A DNA stretch of 64,000 bases from a virus. This document shows positions 1 through 61,746 of this stretch, piece by piece (position 1 is the stretch's first letter; each line of letters starts with the position of its first letter). Both the position numbers and the translations under genes were made by a program. The notes below the pieces were generated by a model. That model was not told the DNA's origin, searched no databases, and worked only from the letters and a program-made list of their open reading frames with translations. Location of the stretch: positions 81,863 to 145,862 of IMG/VR virus record IMGVR_UViG_3300045988_118370; one strand, 5' to 3'.

Positions 1-215
1 TTTATAAGTCATCTTATAATCAACTTGATTGGTTTTAAGATTAATAGCCTTCCGCACTCGGATCTCTTCAAGCACTTTACCATCATTATCAAAGTCAATC
101 ATAAGATAGATTTGTTCAATTTTCTTATGACGAACACTTTTTTCCTTCATCCAAGAAGGGATATTTTTAATATCAAACTTACGTTCGATTTCCATCTTTA
201 TACTCCTTTAACTCT
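1..215 (-). CDS. hypothetical protein, partial (N-terminal part; continues past window start)
   Basis: Minus-strand ORF starting at ATG about 213-215 (MEIERKFDIKNIPSW...). GGAG-type RBS upstream on the minus strand. Runs off the window edge. Confidence 0.35.
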
Positions 216-353
216 TGGAAATAAGTAAGAATCTACTCATTTTTATCAATAATCTCTGGACTATAATTATAATACTTCATAGAAGCAATCTAATCTTTCC
301 ATTCAGCGATTAACTAATCTATAGTATAATTCATGATTTCACCTACTTACTAT

Positions 354-429
354 TGGGGTGACTGACGGAATTCGAATCCGTGACATTCTGAGCCACAATC
401 AGACGCTCTACCAACTGAGCTACAGCCAC
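354..429 (-). tRNA. tRNA-His (anticodon GTG)
   Basis: Revcomp folds as a cloverleaf. Acceptor GTGGCTG/CAGTCAC, anticodon loop TTGTGGC, T-loop TTCGAAT, CCA encoded. Confidence 0.7.
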
Positions 430-430
430 A

Positions 431-518
431 TGGTGCTTTTGGTGAGACTCGAACTCACATGAACTTTACGCCCACTAGATTCTTAGTCTAGCATGTATAC
501 CAATTCCATCACAAAAGC
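431..518 (-). tRNA. class II tRNA (Leu-like); anticodon loop CTAAGAA gives AAG by standard numbering
   Basis: 88 nt. Acceptor GCTTTTG/CAAAAGC, 3-bp D stem, long variable arm, T-arm GTGAG-TTCGAGT-CTCAC, CCA encoded. A34 is unusual. Confidence 0.6.
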
Positions 519-535
519 ATTTTCTTATTTTCATA

Positions 536-570
536 TATTTATTATATAATATTTTTTTTATAAAGTCAAA
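536..570 (-). promoter_or_regulatory. sigma70-type promoter (TTGACT-N17-TATAAT on minus strand) upstream of the tRNA pair
   Basis: Revcomp reads TTGACTTTATAAAAAAAATATTATATAAT. Confidence 0.55.
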
Positions 571-572
571 AG

Positions 573-610
573 GGCCGATGTAAAGTATATTCACTTTACA
601 TCGGCCGTCG
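573..610. terminator. perfect 13-bp-stem hairpin (bidirectional terminator candidate)
   Basis: GGCCGATGTAAAG tatattca CTTTACATCGGCC lies immediately after the stop of the 613..1752 gene. Confidence 0.6.
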
Positions 611-612
611 CG

Positions 613-1752
613 TTAATAAAGATACTGTTCAATAGTGTTTGCGACCTTAGTTAAAACAACAGACTTAATTACGCGCTCATTTTTAGCCTTTTCAATAGCT
701 TCCTTACGCTTTTCAGCATCAGTAATCGTCCAAAAGTCATCAGGATCAATGTAAACTTCAACCTTTTTCGGATCAGCTGTAATCATACCCTTTTCAATCT
801 TAATCGAATCAGGAGTCAAGGCATAACGAATAGTCTTACTATCTGAGGCATAACCATCATACCATCTTTGATGATTGGTATTAGGATTGTTAAACAAATT
901 AACTGAAGCACCATAGGTATTATATACATCACCATTTACCGTAGTAATAGTGATATTGAAACGAACATTGGAAGTCTGAGAGATATTAAGGTCTTCAAGA
1001 GTTTCTGCCACACCATAACCCTGATTAAGTTCAAAAGCAATCGCTCGAAGATAATCATAAGTCATATTAACAGTGCGAGAAAAATTCACAATATCCTTAA
1101 TACCATCTGCGTATTTAGGCTTAACCTTATCAGTCAAATACTCAACGATCTCTTCCTCAGTTGGGAAAGTAATCTTAAAATGATAATGGAAACGACCAGG
1201 TCTATTCAAAAGATAAGTGCTAAGTCGATCAACTTCATTACAAGTAATGACAAAAAGCTTCTTACCATTATCAAGACCATCAAAAAGAGAAAGCATTTCT
1301 TCCTGCGGAGAGGGGCCCGCATGGTCGTCAGAGTTATTAGAGAAATTCTTTTCAAACTCATCAAAAATAATTACGACTTCTTGCTCGATACTGGAAATAA
1401 AATCTGCGATACCAGGCATATAAGTATTAGCCAAAAGGACAGGATATCCGTTTTCAATAGCGTGATGAGAAAGAATACGAGCAAACAATGACTTACCAAT
1501 ACCCTTCTGACCACTTAAAATAACACCAAGATTACGGTCTGAATACTTAAAAGAATTAAGCACCTTATTGACTTTAACTTCGTGATTACCATAAATTTTT
1601 TCCTCATTGACCGCAAGATCTGGACGAGAAGAAAGATAAAAACCTGCCATCTTACTAAAGCAGACTTCAAAAGACATAAGCGGAAGTCGCTTATAAGTCT
1701 TAACGTCCTCGCCATAAATCTGATAGCGAGAACCAGCGTTTACAATATTCAT
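613..1752 (-). CDS. AAA+ family ATPase
   Basis: 379 aa. Walker A GQKGIGKS, Walker B VVIIFDEFE, sensor LLNRPGRF. RBS AAGAGGA 8 nt upstream. TAA stop. Confidence 0.8.
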   Translation of the reverse strand: MNIVNAGSRYQIYGEDVKTYKRLPLMSFEVCFSKMAGFYLSSRPDLAVNEEKIYGNHEVKVNKVLNSFKYSDRNLGVILSGQKGIGKSLFARILSHHAIENGYPVLLANTYMPGIADFISSIEQEVVIIFDEFEKNFSNNSDDHAGPSPQEEMLSLFDGLDNGKKLFVITCNEVDRLSTYLLNRPGRFHYHFKITFPTEEEIVEYLTDKVKPKYADGIKDIVNFSRTVNMTYDYLRAIAFELNQGYGVAETLEDLNISQTSNVRFNITITTVNGDVYNTYGASVNLFNNPNTNHQRWYDGYASDSKTIRYALTPDSIKIEKGMITADPKKVEVYIDPDDFWTITDAEKRKEAIEKAKNERVIKSVVLTKVANTIEQYLY

Positions 1753-1779
1753 ACTTAATCCTCTTAATTTAAAATTTAA

Positions 1780-1870
1780 TGGCGAAGGAGAGAGGATTCG
1801 AACCTCCGGGCCCCAAATGAGGCCAACACCTTAGCAGGGTGCCGCATTCAACCAGCTCTGCCACTCCTTC
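1780..1870 (-). tRNA. tRNA-Ser (anticodon GCT), class II
   Basis: Acceptor GAAGGAG/CTCCTTC, anticodon stem-loop GCACC-CTGCTAA-GGTGT, long variable arm, T-arm GGAGG-TTCGAAT-CCTCT, CCA encoded. Confidence 0.7.
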
Positions 1871-1962
1871 ATAATATATAAATAGAATAATTTACTGCTT
1901 AAACAGATGATATCCTCGTTTAAACCATACCACACCCTCACCCAACGCCTCAATTATTCTAT

Positions 1963-2199
1963 TTATTTACACCTATATATAATTAGCTTAGGCTTAATAC
2001 TATATCCACAATAACTACGCCAAGTGCGATAATTACTAAAAATATAATATTTTCTATCAGGTTTAATATTACCAAATAAATTTAAAACTCTCAGTCCTTG
2101 CTTATAATGAGAAGTTTTATTATTCACTTGATAATTGGCCCAATCAAGAATTTCTTGACCGCTAAAACAAGGATTTTTATAGCTTAAAATATTTTTCAT
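1963..2199 (-). CDS. hypothetical protein (78 aa)
   Basis: ORF with RBS GGAGGTAGGAT before the ATG. TAA stop. Confidence 0.5.
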   Translation of the reverse strand: MKNILSYKNPCFSGQEILDWANYQVNNKTSHYKQGLRVLNLFGNIKPDRKYYIFSNYRTWRSYCGYSIKPKLIIYRCK

Positions 2200-2608
2200 A
2201 TCCTACCTCCTCTGCTTTTCTGGACTTGGAACCAGCCTATGGTAGCATTAGATAGGCGACCGCACTTATCGTTCGCTAGGACAAAACTCGCGCTCATCGC
2301 CAAAGATCAAATCATCAACATCTTTAAACATATCAGACAATCCTCCTTCTTTATTTATTTTTATGAAACAAAATAGAGAGTAGAAAAACAATTCATTTCT
2401 ATGGAAGTGAGAGAAAACAACAATCTATATATCAAACGAAAGGGGAAATCAAACAGAAAGATAAGTAAGAAAATGAACTAGATGTAAAAGACTCTCTCTA
2501 TTGTATAGTCTTTTGTTTCTATATATTTAAATATATAGAAGAGTAGCCTTTCTAACAGGCATCCCAACAGCCTCGAGCAGCAAAGAGGTTCCTCATTTGT
2601 TGGTCTTT

Positions 2609-2684
2609 TGGTGGGCGGAGACAGAATCGAACTGCCGACGCTAGGATCTTCAATCCTACGCTCTACCAACTGAGCTATCCGCCC
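2609..2684 (-). tRNA. tRNA-Phe (anticodon GAA)
   Basis: GGGCGGATAGCTCAGTTGGTAGAGC..., anticodon arm TAGGA-TTGAAGA-TCCTA, T-loop TTCGATT, CCA encoded. Confidence 0.75.
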
Positions 2685-2898
2685 ATAATATTTATATTGC
2701 TACGATTCCCGATTCTCCACGTAGTCATTCTTCCTTTAAAATTGACTAAAAGAATGTGATATTTTATTTATCGTACTACATCAACAATATAAATAGAACA
2801 AGACGCTATAAACAATCTTAAGCATATGTATTTTGTACATTGATGTTTTAAAGTTTGCTGTTAGCGCCTTAATTATTCAAAAAGAAAGGAAAGATAAA

Positions 2899-3102
2899 TT
2901 ATGCGTTTGCGGGTTCCGCGTTCTTCGGTCTGCGGAACTTTACATAACGCTCACCATCATATCGGGACATCCAAATGATTGTGCCATCCTTAAAATGGAA
3001 ATCATAAGTAAAATCTTTATCCTGTTCATCAACCTGATGGCAAAAGCCCTTACCATACTTCTTAGAATAAACCTTGTCGCCGGGCTTAAACTTAAACTTC
3101 AT
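2899..3102 (-). CDS. hypothetical small protein (67 aa)
   Basis: ORF with RBS AAAGGAGATATCTAA before the ATG. TAA stop. Confidence 0.5.
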   Translation of the reverse strand: MKFKFKPGDKVYSKKYGKGFCHQVDEQDKDFTYDFHFKDGTIIWMSRYDGERYVKFRRPKNAEPANA

Positions 3103-3147
3103 TTAGATATCTCCTTTTGGATTATTTTAATTTACAAGACACAAATG

Positions 3148-3219
3148 AAATATTTGTTGGAATTGAACCAACTACAATTTGTTTGACAGACAAATACTCT
3201 ACCAATGAGTTAAAATACT
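3148..3219 (-). tRNA. tRNA-Asp-like (anticodon GTC), AT-rich acceptor, no encoded CCA
   Basis: D arm ACTC-ATTGGTA-GAGT, anticodon arm TTTGT-CTGTCAA-ACAAA, T arm GTTGG-TTCAATT-CCAAC, acceptor AGTATTT/AAATATT. It sits inside a spurious plus-strand ORF. Confidence 0.5.
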
Positions 3220-3300
3220 TTCAATAGAAAATGATTGCTGTGTGTGTCTTTATTACTGTGATACCTCTTAAAAGAGGGCTTACGGCATTACGCCTAATAT

Positions 3301-4080
3301 TTATATGTTTTTCCATTCATCATCAGTGTATAAATTTATAATTTTTTTTGTATTAGGTAAATTATAAGAAATACACCATTTTCTAATGGAATTATCACTT
3401 ACATGATATATATTCGCGATAGAAGTAAAACTTTTATTACGAATCAATTTTTTTAATTTATCACGAGAAGGTCTTTTAATTTTTCGATGTTCTTTAGCAG
3501 AACATTTCTAACATTTTTGACCTTTTCCGCTCCACTCTCCACCACATATAGGACAAACTTTTTTTAAAAGTTTTTTCTCTTCTTCTGGTTTATTTTTATC
3601 AAAACGAGAATAATGTAAAGGATAATTTAATTTTTCATTAAACCAAGTTCTTCCAACATTTATATCTCTAATAGTATCTTTACTAACTTTATATTTTTTA
3701 GCTAATTCCGAATGATTAACTACACCTAACTTATCATTAATTAAAATATTTTGAATATCTTGGACTTCCTAATAATTTAATTTTTGATAAATTACGCGAT
3801 AATCTCCACCTATTGTCTAATTATACTCTGGTTTATAATAATCAATCCAATAAGTTTCTCTACTATTTAGATTATCAATTTCACATTCTTCTAACACTTC
3901 AAATATAAAATTAGAAACACCATATTTTCTGAAACTTTGATATAAGGGATAATTATAGCTTTTACTCTTTTCATCTTGGGAGCTATATATATGATTTTCC
4001 CAACGTTCTGCTATATTTCTTGACTATCCAATATAACAATGATTATTTATTTTATTAGTAATTTTATAAATTCCTATCAT
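3301..4080 (-). CDS. GIY-YIG family homing endonuclease; 4 in-frame TAG codons read as sense
   Basis: N-terminus MIGIYKITNKINNHCYIG(TAG)SRNIAERWENH carries the GIY and YIG motifs. CPICGGEW zinc finger and a C-terminal HTH-like tail. RBS AAGGAG 8 nt upstream. Continuous frame of 259 aa only if TAG is sense. TAA stop. Confidence 0.75.
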
Positions 4081-4163
4081 ATTACCATCTCCTTACACTA
4101 TAATTAAAATTTTATTTAAGATAATTATAATTTTTCGACCTCGAAAGTATTTAGGTGATGATA

Positions 4164-4238
4164 TGGTTGCGGTCGGGCGATTCGAACGCCGTTTTTGGCT
4201 TATGAGGCCAACGAGCTACCTTTGCTCCACCACCGCAA
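4164..4238 (-). tRNA. tRNA with CAT anticodon (Met, fMet or Ile2)
   Basis: Anticodon arm TTGGC-CTCATAA-GCCAA, T-loop TTCGAAT, CCA encoded. One mismatch at acceptor 7-66. Confidence 0.6.
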
Positions 4239-4315
4239 TGGTCGGTCAAATTAGAATCGAACTAATATCCCTTGTCTTATGAGAACAATGCTCTACCAGT
4301 TAAGCTATTGACCGA
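4239..4315 (-). tRNA. second tRNA with CAT anticodon (Met or Ile2)
   Basis: Acceptor TCGGTCA/TGACCGA, D arm AGCTTAACTGGTAGAGC, anticodon arm TTGTT-CTCATAA-GACAA, T-loop TTCGATT, CCA encoded. Confidence 0.65.
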
Positions 4316-4474
4316 AAATAGGATAGATATAATATTCATGACTATTATATCTATTGGACTTTCTAACCTATCGTCCCAAAATTCTTAATAGACCTCATCA
4401 AATGGCCAACTTTTGTAGAGGCTTTTGTGCGACCACCTGCGCACTTACATAGACATAAGAATAATGCCAACATA

Positions 4475-4550
4475 TGGCGACCCCGACGGGTGCCGACCCC
4501 GCTATCTCCAGCGTGACAGGCTGGCGGCTCTGCTGACTGCCCCCAGGGCC
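4475..4550 (-). tRNA. tRNA-Asp (anticodon GTC)
   Basis: Anticodon arm CCAGC-CTGTCAC-GCTGG and T arm GCGGG-GTCGGCA-CCCGT resemble E. coli tRNA-Asp. Acceptor GGCCCTG/CGGGGTC pairs including G-U pairs. CCA encoded. Confidence 0.55.
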
Positions 4551-4553
4551 ATA

Positions 4554-4630
4554 TGGTACTCCCAGCCGGATTCGAACCGGCGACTCCAACGTGAAAGGCT
4601 GGTGACTTAAGTCCGCTTGTCGATGGGAGC
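4554..4630 (-). tRNA. tRNA-Glu (anticodon TTC)
   Basis: Acceptor GCTCCCA/TGGGAGT, anticodon arm CCAGC-CTTTCAC-GTTGG, T arm GCCGG-TTCGAAT-CCGGC, CCA encoded. Long D-loop. Confidence 0.55.
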
Positions 4631-4706
4631 ATATTAAATAGACTATAAAGCCGTCTATTAGGGCAAATAATATTTCAGTTCCTTACTAAAAGCGATAAAA
4701 GTAAGG

Positions 4707-4784
4707 TGGTGGCGCGAAGGGGATTCGAACCCAACTATCGCGAGAGTGAGAATCTCGCATCCTAAACCGTTAGACGACCGCGTC
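4707..4784 (-). tRNA. tRNA-Glu-like (anticodon CTC)
   Basis: Glu-type D arm TC-GTC-TAACGGTTTAG-GAT, anticodon arm CGAGA-TTCTCAC-TCTCG, T-loop TTCGAAT, CCA encoded. One acceptor mismatch and a weak T stem. Confidence 0.5.
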
Positions 4785-4939
4785 ATATTTAAGCACATCT
4801 ATCATAATCTTGATTTTTGTGCTTTTGTTTTCGCTTAAACGAGCCTTTACCTTTCTTCGCAGGAACTTTAAATCCTCTGCGCCGAAACAATTGAAGATAC
4901 TCATTAAGCTCTTCCTTATTCTTTTTCATATAACTTTTA

Positions 4940-5044
4940 TTCACGGTATTCATCCTCATCTTCATAAAGGGAAAGATCCTGATAAGCAGCATATTCATCA
5001 CTCTGAATCTCGCAAGCATAGCTTTCATAGTAATCATTATACAT
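4940..5044 (-). CDS. small acidic peptide (34 aa), uncertain
   Basis: ATG sits 8 nt after RBS AAGGAAGA in the conserved promoter-leader module. Translates MYNDYYESYACEIQSDEYAAYQDL.... The track ORF 4789..5037 in another frame has no RBS. Confidence 0.3.
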
Positions 5045-5060
5045 AATTTAAATCTTCCTT

Positions 5061-5110
5061 TCTTAACTTTCTATAAATATTATAACTTATTTTTTATAAA
5101 ATGTCAAAAG
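5061..5110 (-). promoter_or_regulatory. type-1 early promoter-leader module (TTGACA-N17-TATAAT plus conserved leader with RBS)
   Basis: Revcomp reads TTGACATTTTATAAAAAATAAGTTATAATATTTATAGAAAGTTAAGAAAGGAAG. Near-identical modules recur at about 6770-6830, 7090-7150, 14760-14830, 18590-18650, 19255-19320, 24065-24120, 28085-28150, 30840-30900 and 33735-33790. Variants at 16440-16500, 22050-22110 and 25150-25210 have TTTATT in place of TTGACA. Confidence 0.6.
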
Positions 5111-5223
5111 ATTAAAAGACCAACCAAAAGCGATATTTGTTAACGATGGTCGCCACTCCACCGCCGTCAATATTCACAAACACTTACCATTTTCACACTA
5201 ACCTACTAATTAAAGGAGGTGAC

Positions 5224-5311
5224 TGGTGCTTCGAGAGAGACTTGAACTCTCACCATCCGTTCGGATAATCGGGTTTGAGCCGATCGCGTCTGCCAATTCC
5301 GCCATCAAAGC
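5224..5311 (-). tRNA. tRNA-Leu (anticodon CAA), class II
   Basis: Acceptor GCTTTGA/TCGAAGC, anticodon arm ATCGG-CTCAAAC-CCGAT, long variable arm, T-loop TTCAAGT, CCA encoded. Confidence 0.7.
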
Positions 5312-5332
5312 ATAACTAAGAGGATTTTTAAG

Positions 5333-5462
5333 AAGAATCCTCAAAACTTCTTTCTAATCATCTAATTGGATTTTTAAGAAGAACCCTCAAAACTTCTTTC
5401 TAATCTAACGGAAGTTTTAAGAAGATCTTCCAACTTCTTTCTAATCTTAATCGCACTTTAGG
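5333..5462. repeat. three tandem ~42-bp repeats, each an AAGAAG...CTTCTT hairpin
   Basis: The unit ttttaagaagaaNcctcaaaacttctttctaatc occurs three times head-to-tail, directly upstream (minus sense) of tRNA-Leu(CAA). Confidence 0.7.
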
Positions 5463-5858
5463 GCGGCCGTCCCTTCGCGGCGTCACGATTTGCATAATTT
5501 ACTGTATTACCATTTTATTTTCCGAAAAAGGCTACAAACCAAAATGGGAGTTATTTAAGAATAACTTCTAGACTACGCTAACTGCTCAAATTTTCTCTTC
5601 TTAGTGGGAAAAACTTTCTTAGCGCTGAAACCAAAATCACTATTAGCATTTTGTATATATTATCTTATTGTATATAAGTTTTATTAATATACCTTATCTA
5701 TTATATCATTTAGTATATTGTATTAATGTTTAATTAATAAGATAATATTTCTGGCTGCTTTTATCACCAATCATATAATTGGTTATATTGGGCAATGCTC
5801 CCAAACTTGCGGTTTACTTAACCGCCGTGCTTACTCTTTACACCATATAACCATATAA

Positions 5859-5929
5859 TGGTGGACCTCGTGAGAATCGAACTCACCTGATTTTCTGTGT
5901 GCAAGACAGACGACCACGCCATGCAGTCC
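5859..5929 (-). tRNA. tRNA-like, Ala-type anticodon arm (TGC), shortened D region
   Basis: T arm GTGAG-TTCGATT-CTCAC, acceptor GGACTGC/GAGGTCC (6 of 7 pairs), anticodon arm TCTGT-CTTGCAC-ACAGA, CCA encoded. Only about 10 nt between the acceptor and anticodon stems. Confidence 0.35.
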
Positions 5930-6024
5930 CGAAGCCCGGAATGCGACTTATTTATGTATAGATGGAGTCGCCAACCACCTGCGTTCAAAGTCCGCAAGCC
6001 TTCAACGCATTCCCAGGGAGGGAT

Positions 6025-6101
6025 TGGTGCTGGAGAAAGGACTCGAACCTTCAGATTAATGATCCTAAATCATTCGTCTATGCCAATTCGACTACACCAG
6101 C
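6025..6101 (-). tRNA. class I tRNA with anticodon TAG (reads CUA; Leu-like decoding but not class II)
   Basis: Acceptor GCTGGTG/CTCCAGC, D GTC-GAATTGGCATA-GAC, anticodon arm AATGA-TTTAGGA-TCATT, short variable arm AATCT, T arm GAAGG-TTCGAGT-CCTTT, CCA encoded. Confidence 0.55.
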
Positions 6102-6120
6102 AAATAAAGAGTTTTATAAC

Positions 6121-6215
6121 CCACATCGCGAAGATTCGAACTTCGTCAACCGTTAGGACTCGAACCAACTTTTACTCTTTTGGATTCCCAGAACCCATAG
6201 CCTTGATTAATGTGA
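6121..6215 (-). other. ambiguous tRNA-like segment with two T-loop motifs
   Basis: Perfect T arm CGAAG-TTCGAAT-CTTCG plus a second GGTTCGAGTCC motif 25 nt away. A 5' acceptor candidate CACATTA pairs with CGATGTG, but I could not fold a single clean cloverleaf. Confidence 0.3.
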
Positions 6216-6341
6216 GTATAGCCACTACTTCACAATAAGTTTTACTTCGCTTTCTTATATTTAGTCGGGCGTTTTCCGCAAACCACATACTCTTTCGATC
6301 GGTGGTAGTTTAAACTTACAAAATCCGTGTTAACGCCCCAA

Positions 6342-6418
6342 TGGCGGGAGAGATAGGATTCGAACCTATGACATCTTGTTTAACAGACAAGCGCTCTAAC
6401 CAACTGAGCTACACTCCC
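6342..6418 (-). tRNA. tRNA-Asn (anticodon GTT)
   Basis: GGGAGTGTAGCTCAGTTGGTTAGAGC..., anticodon arm CTTGT-CTGTTAA-ACAAG, T arm ATAGG-TTCGAAT-CCTAT, CCA encoded. Confidence 0.7.
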
Positions 6419-6439
6419 ATAAAAGAAGGACTTTTTAAA

Positions 6440-6500
6440 ATCCTTACTTTATATATTTATTATATTATATTTTTTTTAAAAAATCAACTTTTCTCTTTTA
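6440..6500 (-). promoter_or_regulatory. promoter (TTGATT-N17-TATAAT) for tRNA-Asn; a second consensus promoter at 6530-6570
   Basis: Revcomp reads TTGATTTTTTAAAAAAAATATAATATAAT. Upstream copy reads TTGACATTTTATAAAAAATATTATATAAT. Confidence 0.5.
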
Positions 6501-6571
6501 CCCAAATTTTTTTATTTTCTTTTTTCTTTCTTCATTTTATATAAATATTATATAATATTTTTTATAAAATG

Positions 6572-6754
6572 TCAATAAGGTCTTTGAATTGGCATTAAAT
6601 CATCTTCTGAAAGAAGCCACTTTTCACCATGCTCATCAAGGACTTCAATCTGATAATTTAATACTCGAATGACAGTACATTTAAGATACTGTCTACGATA
6701 ACAACGACCACGATAAGGGACAAAACAATAAGAATTACCAACTTCAATATTCAT
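6572..6754 (-). CDS. hypothetical protein (60 aa)
   Basis: ORF with RBS GAAAGGAGAAAATAAATA before the ATG and its own type-1 promoter at 6770-6830. TGA stop. Confidence 0.5.
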   Translation of the reverse strand: MNIEVGNSYCFVPYRGRCYRRQYLKCTVIRVLNYQIEVLDEHGEKWLLSEDDLMPIQRPY

Positions 6755-6910
6755 TATTTATTTTCTCCTTTCTCAACTTTCTATATATATTATATTATAT
6801 ATTTTTAATAAAATCAAAAAAGTTCTTTTTGTTTAAGTAGATTTAACAAATTTACCACAATTTTAGTCGAAATCAGGAACACCGCGTGAAGGTATTGTGG
6901 ATAGTTCCCG

Positions 6911-6982
6911 CAGGCGCCGTAGGATTCGAACCCACACCTCAAGATTTTGGAGATCCGAATGCGACCGTTACACCAGACGCCT
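6911..6982 (-). tRNA. tRNA-Trp (anticodon CCA), no encoded CCA tail
   Basis: Acceptor AGGCGTC/GGCGCCT (A1-U72), anticodon loop CTCCAAA with a 4-bp stem, T arm GTGGG-TTCGAAT-CCTAC. Confidence 0.5.
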
Positions 6983-7003
6983 ATAAAACAAGACCTTAAC
7001 TTT

Positions 7004-7074
7004 GTCCGGAAAATGGATTTGAACCATTAACTTAATCTTAAATGATTATGACCTAACCTTTAGTCTATTCTGGA
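7004..7074 (-). tRNA. atypical tRNA-like gene with a 6-nt anticodon loop (ATTTAA)
   Basis: Acceptor TCCAGAA/TTCCGGA, D GAC-TAAAGGTTAG-GTC, perfect anticodon stem TAATC/GATTA around loop ATTTAA, T arm AATGG-TTCAAAT-CCATT. No CCA. Confidence 0.4.
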
Positions 7075-7089
7075 AGTTATTTTTGCTGT

Positions 7090-7150
7090 AAAGGTCTTTC
7101 TTTATTTTATAAATATATTATATATTATTTTTTTAAAAATGTCAAAAAAT
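7090..7150 (-). promoter_or_regulatory. type-1 promoter (TTGACA-N17-TATAAT) upstream of tRNA-Trp and the atypical tRNA
   Basis: Revcomp reads TTGACATTTTTAAAAAAATAATATATAAT. Confidence 0.55.
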
Positions 7151-7153
7151 TTT

Positions 7154-8470
7154 TTAATTCGTTATTAGTTTCCATGTTGTACTATCTGTTTTTACATATA
7201 CTCTACTGTCAGGATGAGCCATATAATAAGTTAAATATACTGAACTATTTGCTGTACTATCACGATAAGGCTTAACATATATATAATAAGTAGTTCCAGC
7301 AGTAACTTTATAACAAATACCAAAATTAGCTCCAGTACCACCATATTTTTTTGCATAATCATCATCACTAACTAAAATATTAGAAGAAGGCTATCCACTA
7401 CTATTAAGAGAAGTAATATTTGATGTTAAATATCCATAAGTATCTATTGAAGAATTAGAATAAACAATAAAGTCCCCTGAAATAGTAGGAGTAAAAGAAA
7501 AATATCGACAAGTGCTTGGAGATAAAGTCCAAGAAGAGGTATTCTATTTGTTATAAGTAGGAGCAGATATTGACACAGTAGAATAAGCCCAATTTGCTAT
7601 AGACTAAATAGTAATTCTTATATAGCCATTTCCACCATGACCTGTTTCAGATGACCCTGTTGGAGAAATAAATGAAGAATTACCTGCGATAGTTGATGCA
7701 GAAGTTAAATAATAGTTACTATTTAACAAACAACCAGAAGGATAATTAGAAGCAGTGGATGAGGTATATACATAACCAGAACCTCCGCCACCATGATATT
7801 TTGTTCCACCCTGCATATTAGAGAGTGAAACAATTCCACCATACCAGCCGCCTCCTCCAGCTCCATTTATATTATAAGAAGAACTGGATGAATATCCATT
7901 TCCTCCTACTCCAAAGCTATTTCCTGAAGTTTGTGTACTTAGACCTGGACTATTAGACCCTGCTACACTACTGGTGCCCCCACCGGCATCTCCGCTTTCT
8001 GTATTAGATCCCCAAGAGGTAGCTCCGCCTCCGCCGGCGACAATTACACGAGCGTAGAGAGAGTTTGATCCAATACGAATATCAGAAGCTCCTCCACCAC
8101 CACCGCTTCGAGACATAGATCCGGAGACTCCTCCAGTACCGCCTCCATTAAATCCTCCTGTATAATCATTAGCAGAAGAAGAAATACAACCTCCTTTTCC
8201 ACCAGTATATAAATATACCGTTTGAGAGGAAGAAAGAGTTAAAATTCCCGTTGAATATCCACCTTTTCCTCCTATAGCTCCCGAAGAAGCGTCAAAACTA
8301 GAGTTACTATTAGCACCATTTCCTCCCTAAGCCCCCCAACATTCTAATTTATAAGTACCTTTTGGAAGGGCAATATTTTTATAAGTTCCACTATAAGGAC
8401 AATTTAATATATCTCCTGTTTTTAAAGAAGAAGAAGAAGGAATTGAAGAAGTTAAGTCGTAAGTTGCCAT
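7154..8470 (-). CDS. glycine-rich tail-fibre-like protein (paralog 2); 4 in-frame TAG read as sense
   Basis: Continuous 438-aa frame from ATG at 8470 (RBS AAGGAGGAG) to TAA at 7154 when TAG is sense. Motifs YKLECWGA, YLYTGG, GGGGGASDIRIG and GYIRITI are shared with the upstream paralog. Track fragments 7604..8116 and 8452..8670 are pieces of it. Confidence 0.65.
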
Positions 8471-9864
8471 GTAACGTCTCCTCCTTTCCAAGTTGTACTA
8501 TCTGTTTTTATATATATAGCTTTAGTAGGAGCATAAGTATTAGAATTGATTTTTATATTTAAAGGAGATAATACTGTAATACGAATATATCCATTTTGCC
8601 CTCCAGGATTAGTTTTACTATAGCCTATCGTAGTAGAGGCATTTGTTAAATAATAATTATTGTTTAACAAACAGCCAGAAGGATAATTAGAAGCAGTTGA
8701 TGAAGTATATACGTAGCCAGAGCCTCCCCCATTATAAGTTCTATAATCAGCAGAGCTATCACTAACATTAGTAGAAGCACCACCGCCATACCAGCCACCA
8801 CCACCACCACCGGGACCATAATTATAATTGGTAGATCCACTAGCATCAGCACCTTGACCAAAAGATCCATTTGTTCCTGCTTTAGTCTATGTAGCCTTAT
8901 ATTCTTCAACCGCAGAGTTACCCGTCAATCCGCCACCCTATTTAATAGAAGAATTACTTTCTCCCGCGCCACCACCACCACCACCGGCAACAATTACACG
9001 GGCATAAAGAGAGTCTTGACCTACGCGGATATCGGAAGCTCCTCCGCCTCCTCCACCTGATGTGTAAGCAGAAGTATACCATCTAATCCTAGAGCTACCT
9101 CCTCCATTAAATCCACCATTAACTATCTTACCTTTTTCACTATCACTTGAATAACTACCATGCCCCCCGGTGTATAAATAAATAGTGGTAGGAACTGGTA
9201 AAGAAAGAATTCCTATAGAATATCCTCCTGTTCCACCCCAATAACTATTTTTTGAACTCGCAGGAGTATAAGTAGTATTACTTTCCTATTTCTAAATCTA
9301 AAAATAAACTTCTTCATTATCCACGGAATTTGAGCTATCTTTAGTATAAGTCATTACGATAGTAGATCCTGATGATAAAGAATAAGTGCCAGTAGTAGTA
9401 AGAGAACTTGATCCAGAAACCGCATTTAAAACTGTATTTCCTCCAACAGTTAAAGTGACTTTATCATAGCTTGCTTCAGTTTTATAATAATATGAAAATT
9501 TATAAGTCCCCCCAGAAGTACAAGTTAATGTAGTTGTAGCAGTACTTGAATCTATTCCTCCGTTAGTAGCTATCCAGTCATTTCCGTCTTGACGAAAATA
9601 ATAATTTGAATCATTAACAGTAAAATAACTGGTCGCATTATGAGTTCCTATATATATCCATGAAGTTGTTGTTGATGAAGTTAAAGAACCAGAATAACCA
9701 ATTCCGCCATAGCCACCCCAACATTCTAATTGATAATTTCCCGCTGGAAGTTTTACTGGATTTACCGCTCCTGAATAGCTACTATTAATAATATCTCCTG
9801 GAATAAATTTAATAGAAGAATAATCTGTTATAGAAGTTCCAGAAGGATTATAAGTATTTGGCAT
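8452..9864 (-). CDS. glycine-rich tail-fibre-like protein (paralog 1); 5 in-frame TAG, three of them within 6 codons
   Basis: ATG at 9864 with RBS AGGAGGA. The frame continues through F-TAG-I-TAG-K-TAG-E at about 9286-9300 into a Gly-rich region with the same motifs as paralog 2. TAA at 8452. 470 aa if read through, 188 aa if the TAG cluster terminates. Confidence 0.6.
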
Positions 9865-9880
9865 TTAAATTCCTCCTCTA

Positions 9881-10435
9881 TTAAGTGAAATACTAAATCC
9901 AAATATCTCCAACATTTCCGTCTGAAGCGGTGGGAGCAGAAGTGGATACTTTAATATTTCTTAAAATATTATTGTTTAAATAAGAAGAATTAGTAGTGAC
10001 AGATAAATTAGATCCCATAGAACCATTAGTAATCTAAGCTAAGTCTAATCCTGGATTAATGGGTAAAATATAATCACCACTGGATGACCCTAATTGTATC
10101 TATCCGATAAATGCTTCATCTTTATATAGAAAATTTGCTTCTACAGCAGTATTCTAATGCCAACATCCTAATCCATTATTAGAATGTTCTTTTTTAATAT
10201 AATATTGAGTTAATTTTAATGCTCCTAAATTATTTATATTTATTGTTATATTAGTAATTGGATTTGTCGCAACATTATTCATATTTGGAATAAGGCCAAT
10301 AATCATTCCGTCTTTATATTCTTTAATAGATTTTGCGGTTCCTATGTAAGTTAATCCATCAGTAGAAGTAATTGGAATAATTTCTAAACTACCACTTCCA
10401 CTACGCATATGTTCTATTGCTTTTGGAATTGCCAT
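9881..10435 (-). CDS. hypothetical tail-associated protein; 4 in-frame TAG read as sense
   Basis: ATG at 10435 with RBS AAGGAGGT. The frame is open through 4 TAGs to TAA at 9881 (184 aa). Track fragment 10154..10435 is its N-terminus. Confidence 0.5.
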
Positions 10436-10517
10436 TTAAATGACCTCCTTATAAATTTTATTATTTCTATAAAATTTAAAAATTTATAGGTAAGTCATTA
10501 ATTTAATTTGGTTAAAT

Positions 10518-10546
10518 AAAAAAAGAGTAATGTCAAATGACATTAC
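10518..10546. terminator. perfect palindrome GAGTAATGTCA-AATGACATTACTC (bidirectional terminator candidate)
   Basis: Lies just downstream of the 10555..10860 stop and is followed by T-rich sequence. Confidence 0.5.
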
Positions 10547-10554
10547 TCTTTAGA

Positions 10555-10860
10555 TTAACTTAATCCCAATCTTGCCTTTAAATCGGCAATATTTTTCTTT
10601 TCATCTATAGTGATTTCAATTGGGGTTTCTCCGCCTGCAGTTGCCCCATCTTCAAAATTCAAAACATTTGAATCCGCGGTTGCACCTGCTTCACCGATCG
10701 GAGTCTTTGGGCACGTCATACTAATAGCAATCTGAATTCGCTCACCATTTTCATTAGCCCAAAGATAATACTTTTTATCTCGCTCGCCGATCCAATCAGC
10801 GCCAAATACTTCCGCCATTTTCTTAGCGATTTGTTCCTTAGCTACTGCACCTTTAGCCAT
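10555..10860 (-). CDS. hypothetical protein (101 aa)
   Basis: ORF MAKGAVAKEQIAKKMAEVFGADW..., TAA stop. RBS not inspected. Confidence 0.55.
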   Translation of the reverse strand: MAKGAVAKEQIAKKMAEVFGADWIGERDKKYYLWANENGERIQIAISMTCPKTPIGEAGATADSNVLNFEDGATAGGETPIEITIDEKKNIADLKARLGLS

Positions 10861-10872
10861 ATCTAATTCTCC

Positions 10873-12306
10873 TTAACTAAAATTATGTATAAAGTCTTTT
10901 AAAGACCTAAAATTATTAACTTTTTCTTCACCAGCATCTCTAAAGCACCAAGGACATAAATACATATCAGTCCCTTTATGATAGTGAATATCTTCTGTAT
11001 AATATAAATTATTACAACATTCGCATCGTTTACAATAAGTATCCGCACAACTATCGCAAACTAATTCATTCTCATCGCCTACGGAATTTGCTTCATCAAG
11101 AATTATACGAGAACCGCAACAAGCGCAATAACCATAGTTATCGTCTTCATTTACTCCATAACTGAATTCACAATCTCCGCATCGCATATATTCTCCACTT
11201 TCAATTATAGTTTTACCGCATTGTAAACAAGGAACATCACCACCAATAGACCAATGAGGAAGATCAGTCTTGTCAAATGGATAATAATACAATTTTAAAC
11301 TATAAATAGGCAAATAGCAAGAAGAATAAAGCAAATCATTATATTGAAGAGTATGCTCACCAATATCTTCAACGATATCACTAATAGGATATAAACGAGA
11401 CAAAATAGGAATCCATGTTTCAGATAATCCGATAGTCTCTTCTCCAAAAGGAGTGCTACTCATCCTATTAGAGACAGTAGTAATACCTCCGTCTACCCAT
11501 TCACGCAACTGAAAAGTCTTATCAAAAGTATTGATAATATCTTTAATTTTTATTAAAGCATTAGTTGTCATAAAAGGATATTGGCGACCAGCCATCAAAC
11601 CGCGTCGTTTATCTTCCATGTAAAGAAGCATACGCCATTTCTTAGAATTCCAAAGAACGTCTTCGGGGAAATGCGGAAGTTTCTGATTCTCCGCTCCGCG
11701 CAAATAGCAAATAAAAGTGCTTCTATCTACCATGTAAGATAAATTTCCTGCTCTGTATTCACCATCAAGCGCATGACAAGAACGCCAATTATAAGTATTT
11801 TCACTCACGCTCAGAAAATCCAAAGGATGAACTGAGAAACATAATGTTCCCTCAATCTTGTCCTCTTGGATAATACGACTTGCGTAATTTTGAATATCTT
11901 CCAAAGAGCGCGGATTCTCTTCAAAATACTTAAAAGCCTTAACTAATTTCATTCCTCTTGGAATCTTTTTATCCTTATAAAAATAAGTATCTATAACTGT
12001 ATTATTAAAGAATCCTTCTTTATTTACTGAAATAAAATCTTTTAAGTCTTCATTATTATAAGTATAATTAATTGTTTCAAGAAACTCCTCAAGACGATGC
12101 TCTTTAGTTTTATCATCTAAAGAAAAAGATACCTTTTCCGGCCATTCATAAATTAAATGACCGTGAAAAAATTTAATTAAGTCTTTTTTGGCTTTGAGGA
12201 ATCTTTCGAATAGTTCTTCTGTTTTTGGATTACTGATTCCTTGGGAGTAACTGATGACTTTGTTGAACTGTTCTCTAATGCTTTCGATGTCGAAGTCATA
12301 TGACAT
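10873..12306 (-). CDS. large paralog A of an unknown family with SVHPLD...W-SC core and a Cys-rich C-terminus (possibly PcfJ-like)
   Basis: Start at MSYDFDIE with RBS GGAGG 7 nt upstream; the track start at 12327 has no RBS. Core LCFSVHPLDFLSVSENTYNWRSCH is shared with the 14814..16418 protein. C-terminal CxxC clusters. Confidence 0.65.
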   Translation of the reverse strand: MSYDFDIESIREQFNKVISYSQGISNPKTEELFERFLKAKKDLIKFFHGHLIYEWPEKVSFSLDDKTKEHRLEEFLETINYTYNNEDLKDFISVNKEGFFNNTVIDTYFYKDKKIPRGMKLVKAFKYFEENPRSLEDIQNYASRIIQEDKIEGTLCFSVHPLDFLSVSENTYNWRSCHALDGEYRAGNLSYMVDRSTFICYLRGAENQKLPHFPEDVLWNSKKWRMLLYMEDKRRGLMAGRQYPFMTTNALIKIKDIINTFDKTFQLREWVDGGITTVSNRMSSTPFGEETIGLSETWIPILSRLYPISDIVEDIGEHTLQYNDLLYSSCYLPIYSLKLYYYPFDKTDLPHWSIGGDVPCLQCGKTIIESGEYMRCGDCEFSYGVNEDDNYGYCACCGSRIILDEANSVGDENELVCDSCADTYCKRCECCNNLYYTEDIHYHKGTDMYLCPWCFRDAGEEKVNNFRSLKDFIHNFS

Positions 12307-13283
12307 TTGACTAATCCTCCAATACAATCTTTACAATACTCGCTGTGTGGGTTCGCAGGGTCAATTTCAAATGCCTCTTCACACTCCGCACACCATTCAA
12401 CATTACTGGGAATACAATCAGGACAATAAAAACATGTATGTCCATCTAATCCCTTTACTGGAAATGTTTCATACTCACTAAATAGCTGACCGCATCCTCT
12501 ACAATGAACGTAGAATCCATCGCCATCAGTTGGAAAATTCTTACAAATATTATCGAACCAAATATTATGATAATTACGATAATACTCAAAATTAGGGATA
12601 TCTTTCTCTTGGAGCATGCGGATTACCTTATTAATCGTATCAAAAAGAGCGCCCGCATTTAATGTTTCAACATGACTATGTTCATTCTTGTATCCAACTG
12701 AAAGATTTACACCACAAATTTTCCATTCAGGACATAAAACACTAATATCACTAAACGTGCCAAAATCCTCTACAAATCCAAAAGATTCAATGTAATCAAT
12801 GAATTTAGGATTGTAAAGGTCGTAAAATACACAATCATTTGTGCCTTGTCTATCCAACTGAATAATATATTTCAAATCAGGAAATGGACACTCAAAATAT
12901 TGTAATACTAATGCTTCGGCGCCTAATCCACCAATTTCTTCATCAGTGGTAAAAATAATAGAAGGGCGCAAAGATGTATTCCTCAAAATATGAAGAATCG
13001 CATATACTCCTGCTCTATCATCTGCACCAAGACCTTCAGGTGACCAAAGCACATTTTTTCTTGTGTCATAATATAAATCTTTGACCGGTTTCTCAAACAC
13101 GGTATCAAGATGAGCCACTAAGGCAATCGGAATATCGCCAACCGCACAAACATACTCTTTAGTAATAACTACTTCAGAATATTTAGATTTCAATACATCG
13201 GCAACATATTCCCTTAACTCATCTTGCGTCGAGCGAACCAGATATTCAAATAACCAAAGTTCATTAGTTTTAAAACCTCTCAC
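12177..13283 (-). CDS. MH-clan (M20/M28/M42-like) zinc metallopeptidase-like protein with C-terminal zinc-ribbon
   Basis: Motifs HLDTV, GADDRAG, TDEEIGG, QLD and EHSH fit the His/Asp/Glu-Glu/Asp/His metal ligands. The C-terminal CxxC pairs and low-complexity tail overlap the next gene by about 130 nt. Confidence 0.6.
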   Translation of the reverse strand: MRGFKTNELWLFEYLVRSTQDELREYVADVLKSKYSEVVITKEYVCAVGDIPIALVAHLDTVFEKPVKDLYYDTRKNVLWSPEGLGADDRAGVYAILHILRNTSLRPSIIFTTDEEIGGLGAEALVLQYFECPFPDLKYIIQLDRQGTNDCVFYDLYNPKFIDYIESFGFVEDFGTFSDISVLCPEWKICGVNLSVGYKNEHSHVETLNAGALFDTINKVIRMLQEKDIPNFEYYRNYHNIWFDNICKNFPTDGDGFYVHCRGCGQLFSEYETFPVKGLDGHTCFYCPDCIPSNVEWCAECEEAFEIDPANPHSEYCKDCIGGLVKCHMTSTSKALENSSTKSSVTPKESVIQKQKNYSKDSSKPKKT

Positions 13284-16547: not shown

Positions 16548-17912
16548 TTACTTACAAAGATTACCCATGAACATGAGCGGAAGAAGATCATCCGCGTTCT
16601 TGGAATCCTTCATAAGGAAATACATCATCATAGGATTCTTAGAGAAATCCATACCACTCTGACCACCCATCATAGAGAGCATCAGCATGGTGTTCATGTC
16701 GAACTCACCACTATTCTCACTCATCATGAGGAAGGGAAGCATATTGCCGAACGGCGCATCCGGAGTGGGCGCATCAGAAGTCATGTTAAAGAGAGACACG
16801 ACCTTCGTTGCGAAGTTGAAACCAAACGGAGACTTGGTAAGCAGAATCTTCTTCTCCTCACCGGCCTGCGGATCAATCGCAGTCATACCCGTTTCAGCAA
16901 CCTCAGTCACAAACATCGCCTTGCGGTTGTGGATCACAATGTCGCCGACCTTAACGTCCTTGATGGCAACCGGCATCTTGTAAAGGAACTTACCGCCATC
17001 AAAGTTGAAGATATCGACGTCGATAATCTCCTTACTCTCAGGGTTGTAAGAAACCCAAGTGCCATTCGCGTTCTTCACGGCCAGGCCATACATAGACATA
17101 CGAATGTTATCAGTGGTGCAGGGGCCAAAATCAAAATTAAACGCCTTCATTTTCTTATTTCCTTTCTTATTATCAACATTATTGTTAAATGTATTTTGTT
17201 CGTTCAAAACTTTATTGATTCGATCATCAATATAATCGTTATCAATCATGGCACACTTATCTTTAATTGCGTCAATTTGACTACCACCGAGTGTAATTGT
17301 ATCAGGGGCAGAAGCGAGAGTAGTAGCAAAAATTGCGTTAGAATCAATTGAAGCAACCTTTCCAGTCATGCAATCATCATCAGAGACTACTGTAATAGGT
17401 GTGGCATTTAACTCTCCAAGAATCTTCTGGGCTTCTTCATCAGAAATAGTATTCGCGCAAGAAAATTCTGTGCTCCATATTCCCTTGTCATACACTTTGA
17501 TATAATCAAGGTCATCGCGGGTTTTGCTTATATCGTTATTCTTTTCAACAGTCTTCTTTGCCCTACGCATCTTATATTCAAGAAACTTTTCCGAACATTC
17601 AATCGCATAATCATTTGTAAAAATATTACAAACATTATCAACTAAGTATTCACCAAAAGAACCATCAATACCGTCAGCAAAGAAAGAATTCATAATATAA
17701 GTATCAGGAAAAATATCAAAGAAAATTTTACCATTAAGGTCAGATTTGACAACAATCCTAACACTATTTTTAGTAGTCTTTAATTTACGCCAAAAGACGT
17801 AATCAAGCTTATGATACTTACCATCTTGAACTGCTTGACTAAATTTATCTAAGACTTTATCAAAGACATTAGGTGGGAATTTATAAGTTCCCATTACATT
17901 AGATTCAGCCAT
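16548..17912 (-). CDS. hypothetical protein (454 aa) with a Met-rich C-terminus
   Basis: Long ORF with TAA stop. C-terminal MLMLSMMGGQSGMDF...PMMMYFLM. Confidence 0.6.
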   Translation of the reverse strand: MAESNVMGTYKFPPNVFDKVLDKFSQAVQDGKYHKLDYVFWRKLKTTKNSVRIVVKSDLNGKIFFDIFPDTYIMNSFFADGIDGSFGEYLVDNVCNIFTNDYAIECSEKFLEYKMRRAKKTVEKNNDISKTRDDLDYIKVYDKGIWSTEFSCANTISDEEAQKILGELNATPITVVSDDDCMTGKVASIDSNAIFATTLASAPDTITLGGSQIDAIKDKCAMIDNDYIDDRINKVLNEQNTFNNNVDNKKGNKKMKAFNFDFGPCTTDNIRMSMYGLAVKNANGTWVSYNPESKEIIDVDIFNFDGGKFLYKMPVAIKDVKVGDIVIHNRKAMFVTEVAETGMTAIDPQAGEEKKILLTKSPFGFNFATKVVSLFNMTSDAPTPDAPFGNMLPFLMMSENSGEFDMNTMLMLSMMGGQSGMDFSKNPMMMYFLMKDSKNADDLLPLMFMGNLCK

Positions 17913-24618: not shown

Positions 24619-24875
24619 TAGATAGTCTCCTTATCAACTTCCATAATCTTTATATAGTAGTCGCCGTAGCCGTGAACGAAAAACCCATCAAACGAAGGCT
24701 TTTTACAATATGAGATAGACTTATTTTTTTCCCAACGTTCTTGCGCTTCCTTTTCTTTCTTTCGTCCTGCTTCAAAAGCCTTTTCCTCAGTAGAATAAAG
24801 GGCAAGCACCGCGGTATCATCACCGCCAAAACTATCATAATGATAACAAAGAGCATAAACAGTCATTAATGACAC
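24618..24875 (-). CDS. hypothetical protein (85 aa)
   Basis: ORF, coupled. Confidence 0.5.
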   Translation of the reverse strand: MSLMTVYALCYHYDSFGGDDTAVLALYSTEEKAFEAGRKKEKEAQERWEKNKSISYCKKPSFDGFFVHGYGDYYIKIMEVDKETI

Positions 24876-25150
24876 ACCTCCGTATAATAAGTTCCAAGAG
24901 AGCCATCTGCGTTAATCCAAGAGACAATCAGCACGTAAACCATTTCGATGCCGATTGTATCAAAAACGCAGGGGATTTCAATGTTATACTCGCGGATTCG
25001 ACCCTCACCCTTAGCCTTAGAGAAAAGAATCTCAACCGCGTTGGCGATATGAATGCCATCCTTAGAAACGAGCATTGCGTATTCATCATCTTCTGGATCA
25101 GTATACTTTCTACCAATTAGATCCCAAAGCTCTACATACATAATTTTCAA
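24866..25150 (-). CDS. hypothetical protein (94 aa)
   Basis: ORF. Confidence 0.5.
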   Translation of the reverse strand: MKIMYVELWDLIGRKYTDPEDDEYAMLVSKDGIHIANAVEILFSKAKGEGRIREYNIEIPCVFDTIGIEMVYVLIVSWINADGSLGTYYTEVCH

Positions 25151-25238
25151 TTCCTTTCTTAACTTTATATATATATTATATTATATTTTTTTATAAAAAT
25201 AAAATAAGGACTTATGAATTAACATAAGTCCTTATTGT

Positions 25239-40962: not shown

Positions 40963-41039
40963 TGTTTGTATCCCCTTTCTTTACTGTATCCATAGTATAG
41001 CAGATTATTACATTCTTGTCTATTGGTAAAATACCCAAA

Positions 41040-60609: not shown

Positions 60610-60626
60610 GAAAGGAGAAAAGGATA

Positions 60627-61733: not shown

Positions 61734-61746
61734 TTTAATATAAATT

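Follow-up and report, generated by a model that had tools for sequence, protein, structure and literature searches.

The locus described here raises the question of whether a gene that carries four in-frame amber codons, lodged among the transfer RNA (tRNA) genes of a gut phage, is a working mobile element or a remnant, and in which genetic code it is written. The gene lies in IMG/VR virus record IMGVR_UViG_3300045988_118370, of which positions 81,863 to 145,862 were analysed as one stretch of 64,000 nucleotides (hereafter the window), and it occupies 3301-4080 of the window on the minus strand. An earlier reading made from the letters and a list of open reading frames (ORFs), with no database searches (the sequence-only reading), had taken it for a freestanding GIY-YIG homing endonuclease gene with four TAG sense codons, and had suggested that its translation would await a suppressor tRNA. 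The reading that we favour, with a probability of roughly 0.8, is that it encodes an intact, mobile, freestanding GIY-YIG endonuclease on a cassette of about 0.9 kb in a gut phage that reads TAG as glutamine (TAG→Gln). Related contigs and loci are cited below by L numbers.

The ORF runs from an ATG at 4078-4080 (reverse complement) to a TAA at 3301-3303, a total of 259 codons, exactly as the sequence-only reading had placed it. In-frame stops are confined to four TAGs, at codons 19, 88, 104 and 191 (cta on the plus strand; Table 1), and neither TAA nor TGA occurs in frame within the 259 codons; the remaining five frames over the same 780 bp contain 12-40 TAA and TGA triplets apiece. Under random nonsense mutation in a gene of 24% guanine-plus-cytosine (GC), four stops out of four would be TAG with a probability of about 0.003-0.007. 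The surrounding array consists of 16 tRNA genes on the minus strand across 354-7074 (ARAGORN, Rfam), and the gene sits, as had been claimed, between a tRNA-Asp-like gene and two tRNA(CAT) genes. It is independent and intergenic, with a complete tRNA on either side and its own Shine-Dalgarno sequence. A scan of 2800-4700 returned 13 promoter-like sites against 9.5 expected and zero terminators.

Protein searches, in which TAG was translated as Gln, place the product firmly among homing endonucleases. The Pfam GIY-YIG profile (PF01541) was matched over its full length (E=3.7e-10), and phrog_7168, annotated as 'homing endonuclease', matched residues 1-234 (E=3e-34), a span that passes all four TAGs. 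Matches to annotated homing endonucleases of Enterococcus, Flavobacterium and Bacillus phages were obtained with tblastn, and more than 2000 full-length homologues were found in a large protein collection. When a profile built from 34 members of the family was searched against the PDB, the sole match was the catalytic domain of I-TevI (1MK0, 1LN0; E=2.6e-11), with residues 3-88 of the endonuclease aligned to I-TevI residues 4-88. The motifs G3-I4-Y5 and Y16-I17-G18 have the N-terminal location and the separation of about 10-11 residues expected of the family, and the motif G, Y and G are invariant among 120 homologues. R26, E75 and N87 align with I-TevI R27, E75 and N90 (HMMER, using 1LN0 with the wild-type Glu and 1MK0) and are conserved in 120, 117 and 120 of the 120 homologues, respectively; H30 is conserved as well. 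An AlphaFold2 model of P0001, a protein 95% identical to the window endonuclease, had a mean predicted local distance difference test score (pLDDT) of 88.9; the top three Foldseek matches to it were all the I-TevI catalytic domain, with probability 1.00 and template modelling scores of 0.73-0.79 (target-normalised), and the match to 1LN0/1MK0 scored 0.77-0.79, with a root-mean-square deviation of 2.0 Å at 30% identity. The fold and the catalytic residues of a GIY-YIG nuclease are therefore present, and both the alignment to I-TevI and the fold prediction, which the sequence-only reading had proposed as checks, came out in its favour.

The C-terminal half is likely to bind DNA. C176, C179, C190 and C193 are invariant in the family alignment, consistent with a Cys4 zinc finger, and helices at residues 206-258 of the P0001 model, predicted at pLDDT >90, may form a helix-turn-helix. 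Pfam matches to helix-turn-helix families were weak and all below the curated cut-offs (HTH_Tnp_ISL3, E=9e-5, 22.3 versus 27.4 bits), and Foldseek with the P0001 model did not recover a structural match to the I-TevI DNA-binding domain. Taken together, the protein is, as judged from its sequence, an I-TevI-like GIY-YIG homing endonuclease with a predicted N-terminal nuclease, a linker, a Cys4 zinc finger and a C-terminal helix-turn-helix.

The question of how the four TAGs are read was addressed by counting residues at the corresponding columns of the best 119 of the more than 2000 homologues, with the near-identical P0001 left out. The sequence-only reading had pointed to the TAG that follows the YIG motif as falling at a conserved position, and this column is Gln in 118 of the 119 homologues (Ser in I-TevI); the column of codon 88 is Gln in 117. 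Some database proteins represent recoded contigs whose TAGs had already been translated as Gln, and a check against such circularity was therefore made on DNA. The homologues in L018 and L021 are translated by the standard code, in phages where TAG is a terminator, and both have CAA at codons 19 and 88. All four TAGs are retained in six alleles (window, L002/L003, L009, L013, L015 and L016) that differ at no more than 32 nucleotide sites. Pairwise ratios of nonsynonymous to synonymous substitution (dN/dS) among these alleles were 0.10-0.22, and 0.15-0.18 when only codons past the first, third or fourth TAG were counted; the whole frame is under purifying selection. The sequence-only reading had allowed that the ORF might end at its first TAG; homology, purifying selection, the zinc finger and the putative C-terminal helix-turn-helix all lie downstream of it. 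The gene has six CAA, no CAG and four TAG codons (a TAG share of 40%). These comparisons show the four TAGs to be sense codons, for which Gln is the best reading.

The same code is found across the phage that carries the gene, a gut phage of about 197 kb. In-frame TAGs number eight in the terminase large subunit (TerL), 12 in the portal and three in a sigma-factor-like gene (identities by PHROG), and three glycine-rich fibre-like genes on the minus strand at 7154-10435 (PHROG) have 4-5 each, which bears out the earlier suggestion that recoding extends beyond the plus-strand late module. TAA terminates 21 of the 21 window genes examined, and L015, a contig of 197,006 bp with 100% identity to window 1-13102, has 21 called genes, each closed by TAA or TGA. 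Genes that use TAG are almost without CAG, and TAG-free genes are rich in CAG, so that it looks as if TAG replaces CAG in one gene class; the endonuclease shares the TAG/CAG pattern of the terminase, portal and fibre-like genes. By way of example, the terminase gene (54316-56055) has 15 CAA, two CAG and eight TAG, and a gene at 60606-61733 has two CAA, 10 CAG and no TAG. The TAG-free genes at 59692-62413 sit within the plus-strand late module.

A candidate decoder lies just outside the window. In L015, a tRNA(CTA) gene at 17306-17395 belongs to the same array and the same strand, 4.2 kb past the window's left end and 7.3 kb further along the endonuclease strand, and a tRNA(CTA) is carried by all ten related loci (10/10). 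Three quite different alleles of this suppressor occur among close relatives, two of 73 nt and one of 90 nt; the 90-nt allele (L010, L012-L015) has about 17 extra nucleotides in a variable region that resembles class II tRNAs. By sequence inspection all three alleles share a 1:72 mismatch, G2:C71 and G73, which we take to be features of tRNA-Gln identity.

Comparison with relatives indicates that the gene is mobile. Ten contigs of about 56-383 kb were found through a neighbouring protein of 67 amino acids, making eleven genomes with the window, in which the window and its duplicate L015 are counted separately. The site between the tRNAs is occupied by the 259-codon endonuclease in five of the eleven (window, L009, L013, L015 and L016) and by an unrelated 213-codon GIY-YIG gene, also with four TAGs, in two (L012 and L014), and it is empty in four (L008, L010, L011 and L017), the uninterrupted arrays that the sequence-only reading had suggested looking for. 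In a multiple alignment of the eleven genomes the empty ones have ...CCGCAACCATA directly joined to AGACACACACAGC..., and these same sequences bracket a cassette of about 912 bp in the window; BLAST breakpoints between the window and L008 fall at 3250 and 4233. No target-site duplication is visible around the cassette at 3250-4161. The flanks of the site are 93-100% identical across genomes, and the 51-bp 3' end of the cassette, missing from genomes that lack an endonuclease there, is 96% identical to its counterpart in L012.

The neighbouring tRNA(CAT)-2 exists in two versions. Allele A is 99-100% identical in L009, L013, L015 and L016 and only 58-62% identical to the allele of the six genomes without the window's endonuclease; this other allele (B) is still scored as a tRNA by Rfam (39.1 bits). 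Presence of the endonuclease is perfectly linked to allele A among the eleven genomes. A homing-type gene beside a sharply diverged stretch of an otherwise conserved neighbour is the pattern made by co-conversion and target protection at the sites of freestanding endonucleases, and allele A is probably part of a co-converted tract, a protected version of the target, or both. An exact-pattern scan of IMG/VR for tRNA(CAT)-2 allele A gave no match, and none of the four IMG/VR loci related by the endonuclease has the same gene at the same site.

Members of the family in other phages are written in the code of the carrier. In standard-code phages (L018 and L021) they contain zero recoded stops, and in other TAG→Gln phages they contain one (L020), four (L024), three (L025) and four (L004) TAGs, at partly different positions. 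The phage of L023 (25% GC) has a tRNA(TCA) gene at 6704-6779 and uses TAG as a terminator; its family member (L023:4001-4756) is 57% identical to the window endonuclease and has zero TGG. This member has TGA at four invariant or near-invariant Trp columns (W27, W146, W235 and W256), and its neighbouring genes have 12 TGG and one TGA (Fisher p=0.002 versus the endonuclease). The family thus adopts the code of the phage that carries it, whether standard, TAG→Gln or TGA→Trp, and no other single argument speaks as strongly for a sense reading of the in-frame stops. Location within a tRNA array also recurs among family members of other phages: the L018 member directly follows an intact tRNA(CAT), and sequences resembling tRNA(CAT) fragments, as read by eye, lie upstream of the members in L020 and L021.

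Several rival explanations must be weighed against a working, mobile, freestanding endonuclease. The gene could be a pseudogene whose ORF effectively ends at the TAG of codon 19, all that follows being a remnant; degenerate homing endonuclease genes are common in phages, and the standard code would give a peptide of 18 residues only. Such decay is very improbable in a frame of 259 codons with no TAA, TGA or frameshift, in which the stops are all TAG, selection acts on the codons beyond them and six alleles keep them identically, in a window where essential genes (terminase and portal) are likewise filled with TAGs. It could also be that the gene is intron-encoded, within a group I intron of a tRNA gene, as the frequent label 'group I intron endonuclease' on close database homologues would have it. 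This label was rejected: the flanking tRNAs are complete (57-64 bits), no group I intron is found in the window at Rfam gathering thresholds, and genomes without the endonuclease join the two tRNAs by plain intergenic sequence, so that an intron is scarcely credible here and the earlier description of the gene as freestanding holds.

Other observations do weigh against parts of the favoured reading. ARAGORN, relaxed settings included, finds no tRNA with anticodon CTA in the window itself. Codons 104 and 191, two of the four TAGs, stand in variable columns and are therefore uninformative on the amino acid inserted, and the suppressor allele of the window phage is the 90-nt form with its long variable region. 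Endonuclease and suppressor belong to one co-oriented block, the endonuclease gene being the upstream one, such that the two might be co-transcribed with no clear separation into early and late, and the target cleavage site is placed by linkage alone in a sample of 11 genomes. The variable columns and the class II-like allele, which could attract another synthetase, would also suit a reading in which TAG is translated as an amino acid other than Gln, or is read through only in part. We regard this as quite unlikely. Two TAGs fall at near-invariant Gln columns, and the same endonuclease allele with its TAGs coexists with all three suppressor alleles (73-nt forms in L016 and L009, the 90-nt form in L013 and L015), which share the features resembling tRNA-Gln identity elements noted above. 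In phAss-1, a distant phage with the same reassignment, TAGs fall on conserved Gln residues of TerL (PMC10607447).

On the favoured reading, the TAGs of the endonuclease would be decoded by the phage's own tRNA(CUA), encoded in the same array. Were this tRNA absent, host release factor 1 would be expected to halt synthesis at 18 residues, so that the nuclease should be made only where the phage tRNA(CUA) is available, and the enzyme would appear only after that tRNA has built up during infection. In cells infected by a mixture of phages it would then cut genomes lacking the gene in or beside tRNA(CAT)-2, at allele B or at the empty junction, and recombinational repair would transfer both the cassette and allele A to them, in the manner of SegB within the tRNA cluster of T4.

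Late gating of the endonuclease is plausible on these grounds, and Borges et al. (bioRxiv 10.1101/2021.08.26.457843) had already put forward the idea for an intron endonuclease recoded with TGA. The TAG content is most simply explained by membership of the phage's recoded, late-type gene class. A stronger version, which adds selection to the favoured reading, is that the recoded stops were themselves selected as a late gate, leaving the nuclease untranslated until the suppressor is abundant and so limiting early damage to replicating genomes or to the host. Translation of I-TevI is known to be delayed by other means. Across the related TAG→Gln genomes, every GIY-YIG and HNH endonuclease gene, nine or more types in total, had 1-5 TAGs and 0-1 CAG, at 24-29% GC, and several small array genes and an AAA ATPase had no TAG. 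The L023 member with TGA at four of four Trp codons, versus one of 13 in its neighbours, and the preferential TGA recoding of the Agate phage intron endonuclease (bioRxiv 10.1101/2021.08.26.457843) point the same way. Against selection for a gate, the TAG share of the endonuclease lies inside the 23-75% spread seen in ordinary recoded genes, TAG is missing from three of four PDDEXK_5 nuclease-like genes, the L020 copy has one TAG only, and low GC together with late expression could by themselves yield the pattern. An adaptive gate is thus possible and on balance doubtful, and the broader proposal, that homing endonucleases of recoded phages are systematically and selectively written with the reassigned stop and that one GIY-YIG family associated with tRNA arrays has been recoded in independent code changes (TAG→Gln in the window phage, TGA→Trp in L023, neither in standard-code relatives), is put forward as a tentative and rather improbable one.

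Comparison with characterized systems places the components among known kinds. The I-TevI endonuclease of the T4 td intron (1MK0/1LN0) has the same catalytic domain, in which the GIY and YIG motifs and the Arg, Glu and Asn align, and what is probably the same modular build of nuclease, linker, putative zinc finger and putative C-terminal helix-turn-helix. It is intron-encoded, however, whereas the window gene is freestanding, and the window protein has an extra helical, helix-turn-helix-like module at residues ~103-142, a Gln (as TAG) in place of the Ser after YIG, and four amber codons in its gene. T4 SegB is a GIY-YIG endonuclease of the T4 tRNA cluster, with a recognition site that includes the TψC motif, and it drags neighbouring tRNA markers and genes along (PMC2330249). 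The resemblance to the window gene is one of enzyme family, position and distribution, that of a GIY-YIG gene between the tRNA genes of a large lytic phage, absent from close relatives, and the dragging of tRNA markers is paralleled by the perfect linkage to the adjacent tRNA(CAT) allele. SegB differs in being written in the standard code, and its activity and homing were shown experimentally, whereas those of the window endonuclease are deduced from sequence.

Recoding of a homing endonuclease has also been described in Agate phages, where production of a TGA-recoded group I intron endonuclease was proposed to await the alternative code (Borges et al., bioRxiv 10.1101/2021.08.26.457843). As in the window, the endonuclease gene carries the phage's reassigned stop in frame; the Agate case, however, is TGA→Trp, intron-encoded and in an early gene, whereas the window gene is TAG→Gln, freestanding and in a tRNA array, and the TGA→Trp member of its own family is that of L023. 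Apart from Borges et al., full-text literature searches found no report of this kind of link between homing endonucleases and stop-codon recoding.

As for the carrier, phAss-1, of the proposed 'Phassvirus' group, likewise reads TAG as Gln and has tRNA-Sup(CTA) genes according to its description (PMC10607447), and the likeness extends to large size, the gut habitat, about 30 tRNAs and TAGs in terminase, portal and fibre genes. The two are nonetheless distant: TerL identity is 45%, and a megablast of window 1-12000 against 50,697 phage records, which left phAss-1 without a match, returned zero matches overall. With tblastn the window TerL is 44-47% identical to a group with Enterococcus phage EF1, Geobacillus virus E3 and phAss-1, which NCBI files under 'Caudoviricetes code 15 clade', and the top match is an unannotated human faecal contig (60%). 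The terms 'homing endonuclease' and GIY-YIG have 0 occurrences in the phAss-1 paper (Babkin et al., 2023; PMC10607447). What goes beyond the sequence-only reading is the filled, empty or alternatively filled site, the linked tRNA allele and the three codes; the endonuclease itself is of I-TevI-like and SegB-like kinds.

Table 1. Features of the endonuclease locus and of related arrays. Positions are those of the window unless an L number is given; TAG positions are those of cta on the plus strand.
Feature	Position	Strand	Remarks
GIY-YIG homing endonuclease gene, freestanding	3301..4080	-	259 codons; GC 24% versus 37% for the window
GIY-YIG catalytic domain, ~residues 1-92	3805..4080	-	G3-I4-Y5, Y16-I17-G18, R26, H30, E75, N87
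DNA-binding half (putative)	3307..3555	-	Cys4 zinc finger, codons 176-193; helix-turn-helix, codons ~206-258
TAG codon 19	4024..4026	-	YIG-TAG-S; CAA in L018, L021
TAG codon 88	3817..3819	-	EYN-TAG-T, adjoining catalytic Asn87; CAA in L018, L020, L021
TAG codon 104	3769..3771	-	Variable column; homologues E 51, Q 20, others
TAG codon 191	3508..3510	-	Within second CxxC of Cys4 (C190-Q-K-C193); variable column
Shine-Dalgarno AAGGAG	4089..4094	-	8 nt 5' of ATG; sequence inspection
tRNA-Asp(GTC), AT-rich	3147..3219	-	Conserved downstream flank; ARAGORN, Rfam; GTT (Asn) in most relatives
tRNA(CAT)-2, allele A	4164..4237	-	Rfam tRNA score 57.4 bits
tRNA(CAT)-1	4239..4314	-	Conserved upstream flank; 97-100% identical across all relatives
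Cassette, ~912 bp	3250..4161	-	Absent from relatives without a homing endonuclease; between ...CCGCAACCATA and AGACACACACAGC...
Cassette 3' end, 51 bp	3250..3300	-	Two small hairpins, GGCGTAATGCC and CCTCTTTTAAGAGG; also in L012/L014 cassette
Palindrome TTTCGAGGTCGAAA	4133..4146	-	Between tRNA(CAT)-2 and endonuclease start
Array endonucleases	L012:8006-8626, 9167-9808
Array endonuclease	L014:9166-9807
Array endonuclease	L010:17197-17952
Array endonucleases	L016:4808-5575, 6653-7285
Array endonuclease	L017:6072-6716

Further observations concern the cassette and the array around it. The palindrome TTTCGAGGTCGAAA may serve as an operator or processing site, or may be what is left of a terminator, and comparable TCGA-containing inverted repeats precede the family members in L018, L021, L023 and L025. 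Homing endonucleases are frequent in the tRNA array throughout this phage population, where at least six GIY-YIG types and several HNH types occupy different intergenic sites in different genomes; the array is thus a hot spot for them. The AT-rich tRNA at 3147-3219 reads GTC (Asp) in the window and the identical L015 and GTT (Asn) in every other relative checked; one C/T difference separates the two forms, which otherwise match. The GTC form is confined to genomes without a default ARAGORN call of a GC-rich tRNA-Asp; in the window, a GC-rich tRNA-Asp(GTC)-like sequence at 4475-4550 is called by relaxed ARAGORN only and scores below the Rfam gathering score, and its counterpart is called normally in L008, L009, L011, L012, L014 and L017. 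Identity to L002 is about 70% over this stretch and about 96% over the adjoining sequence. At 7004-7074 there is a tRNA-like gene with a 6-nt anticodon loop, reported by ARAGORN as 'tRNA-???' with anticodon 'tt' and not called by Rfam; relatives have it too, with 'tt' or 'tc', where their arrays begin. ARAGORN also calls a tRNA-Thr(AGT) at 5779-5853 with an odd T-arm, below the Rfam gathering score and conserved in several relatives. Relaxed ARAGORN searches of the window that allowed introns gave only implausible intron-containing calls.

Elsewhere in the window, a plus-strand gene of 96 codons with three TAGs lies between terminase and portal (56134-56424); it matches DUF2726 (PD-(D/E)XK-like) below the Pfam cut-off and may be another small nuclease-type insert. 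A 207-codon plus-strand ORF at 31257-31880 (26% GC) has TAG at six of its eight Gln codons and a composition like that of the endonuclease genes, and its match to a known family is not a confident one (DUF6945, E=0.009). In mid-window, further stop-to-stop ORFs with TAGs (e.g. 24647-25162 and 40641-41210) look like non-coding frames. Upstream of the array in L011, L013 and L016 (e.g. L011:1458-7019), a radical-SAM/glycosyltransferase gene, a YcaO gene and a gene for a protein of 292 amino acids take the place of the window's glycine-rich fibre-like genes; L017 has the YcaO and 292-amino-acid genes alongside fibre-like genes.

In summary, this locus joins three things that have been described separately, namely homing endonucleases in phage tRNA clusters, stop reassignment in gut phages, and the proposed delay of translation of particular genes by reassigned stops. 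It is well suited to experiments, with filled, empty and alternatively filled alleles coexisting and the suppressor in the same array, and the phage is abundant, a neighbouring protein being indexed in about 2000 blocks of the assembly collection. That a selfish gene adopts the code of the phage carrying it is relevant to how readily such elements can pass between phages of different codes. If homing endonucleases of recoded phages are indeed selectively written with the reassigned stop, the private code would act as a timing and containment switch for selfish nucleases and as a barrier to their function under other codes.

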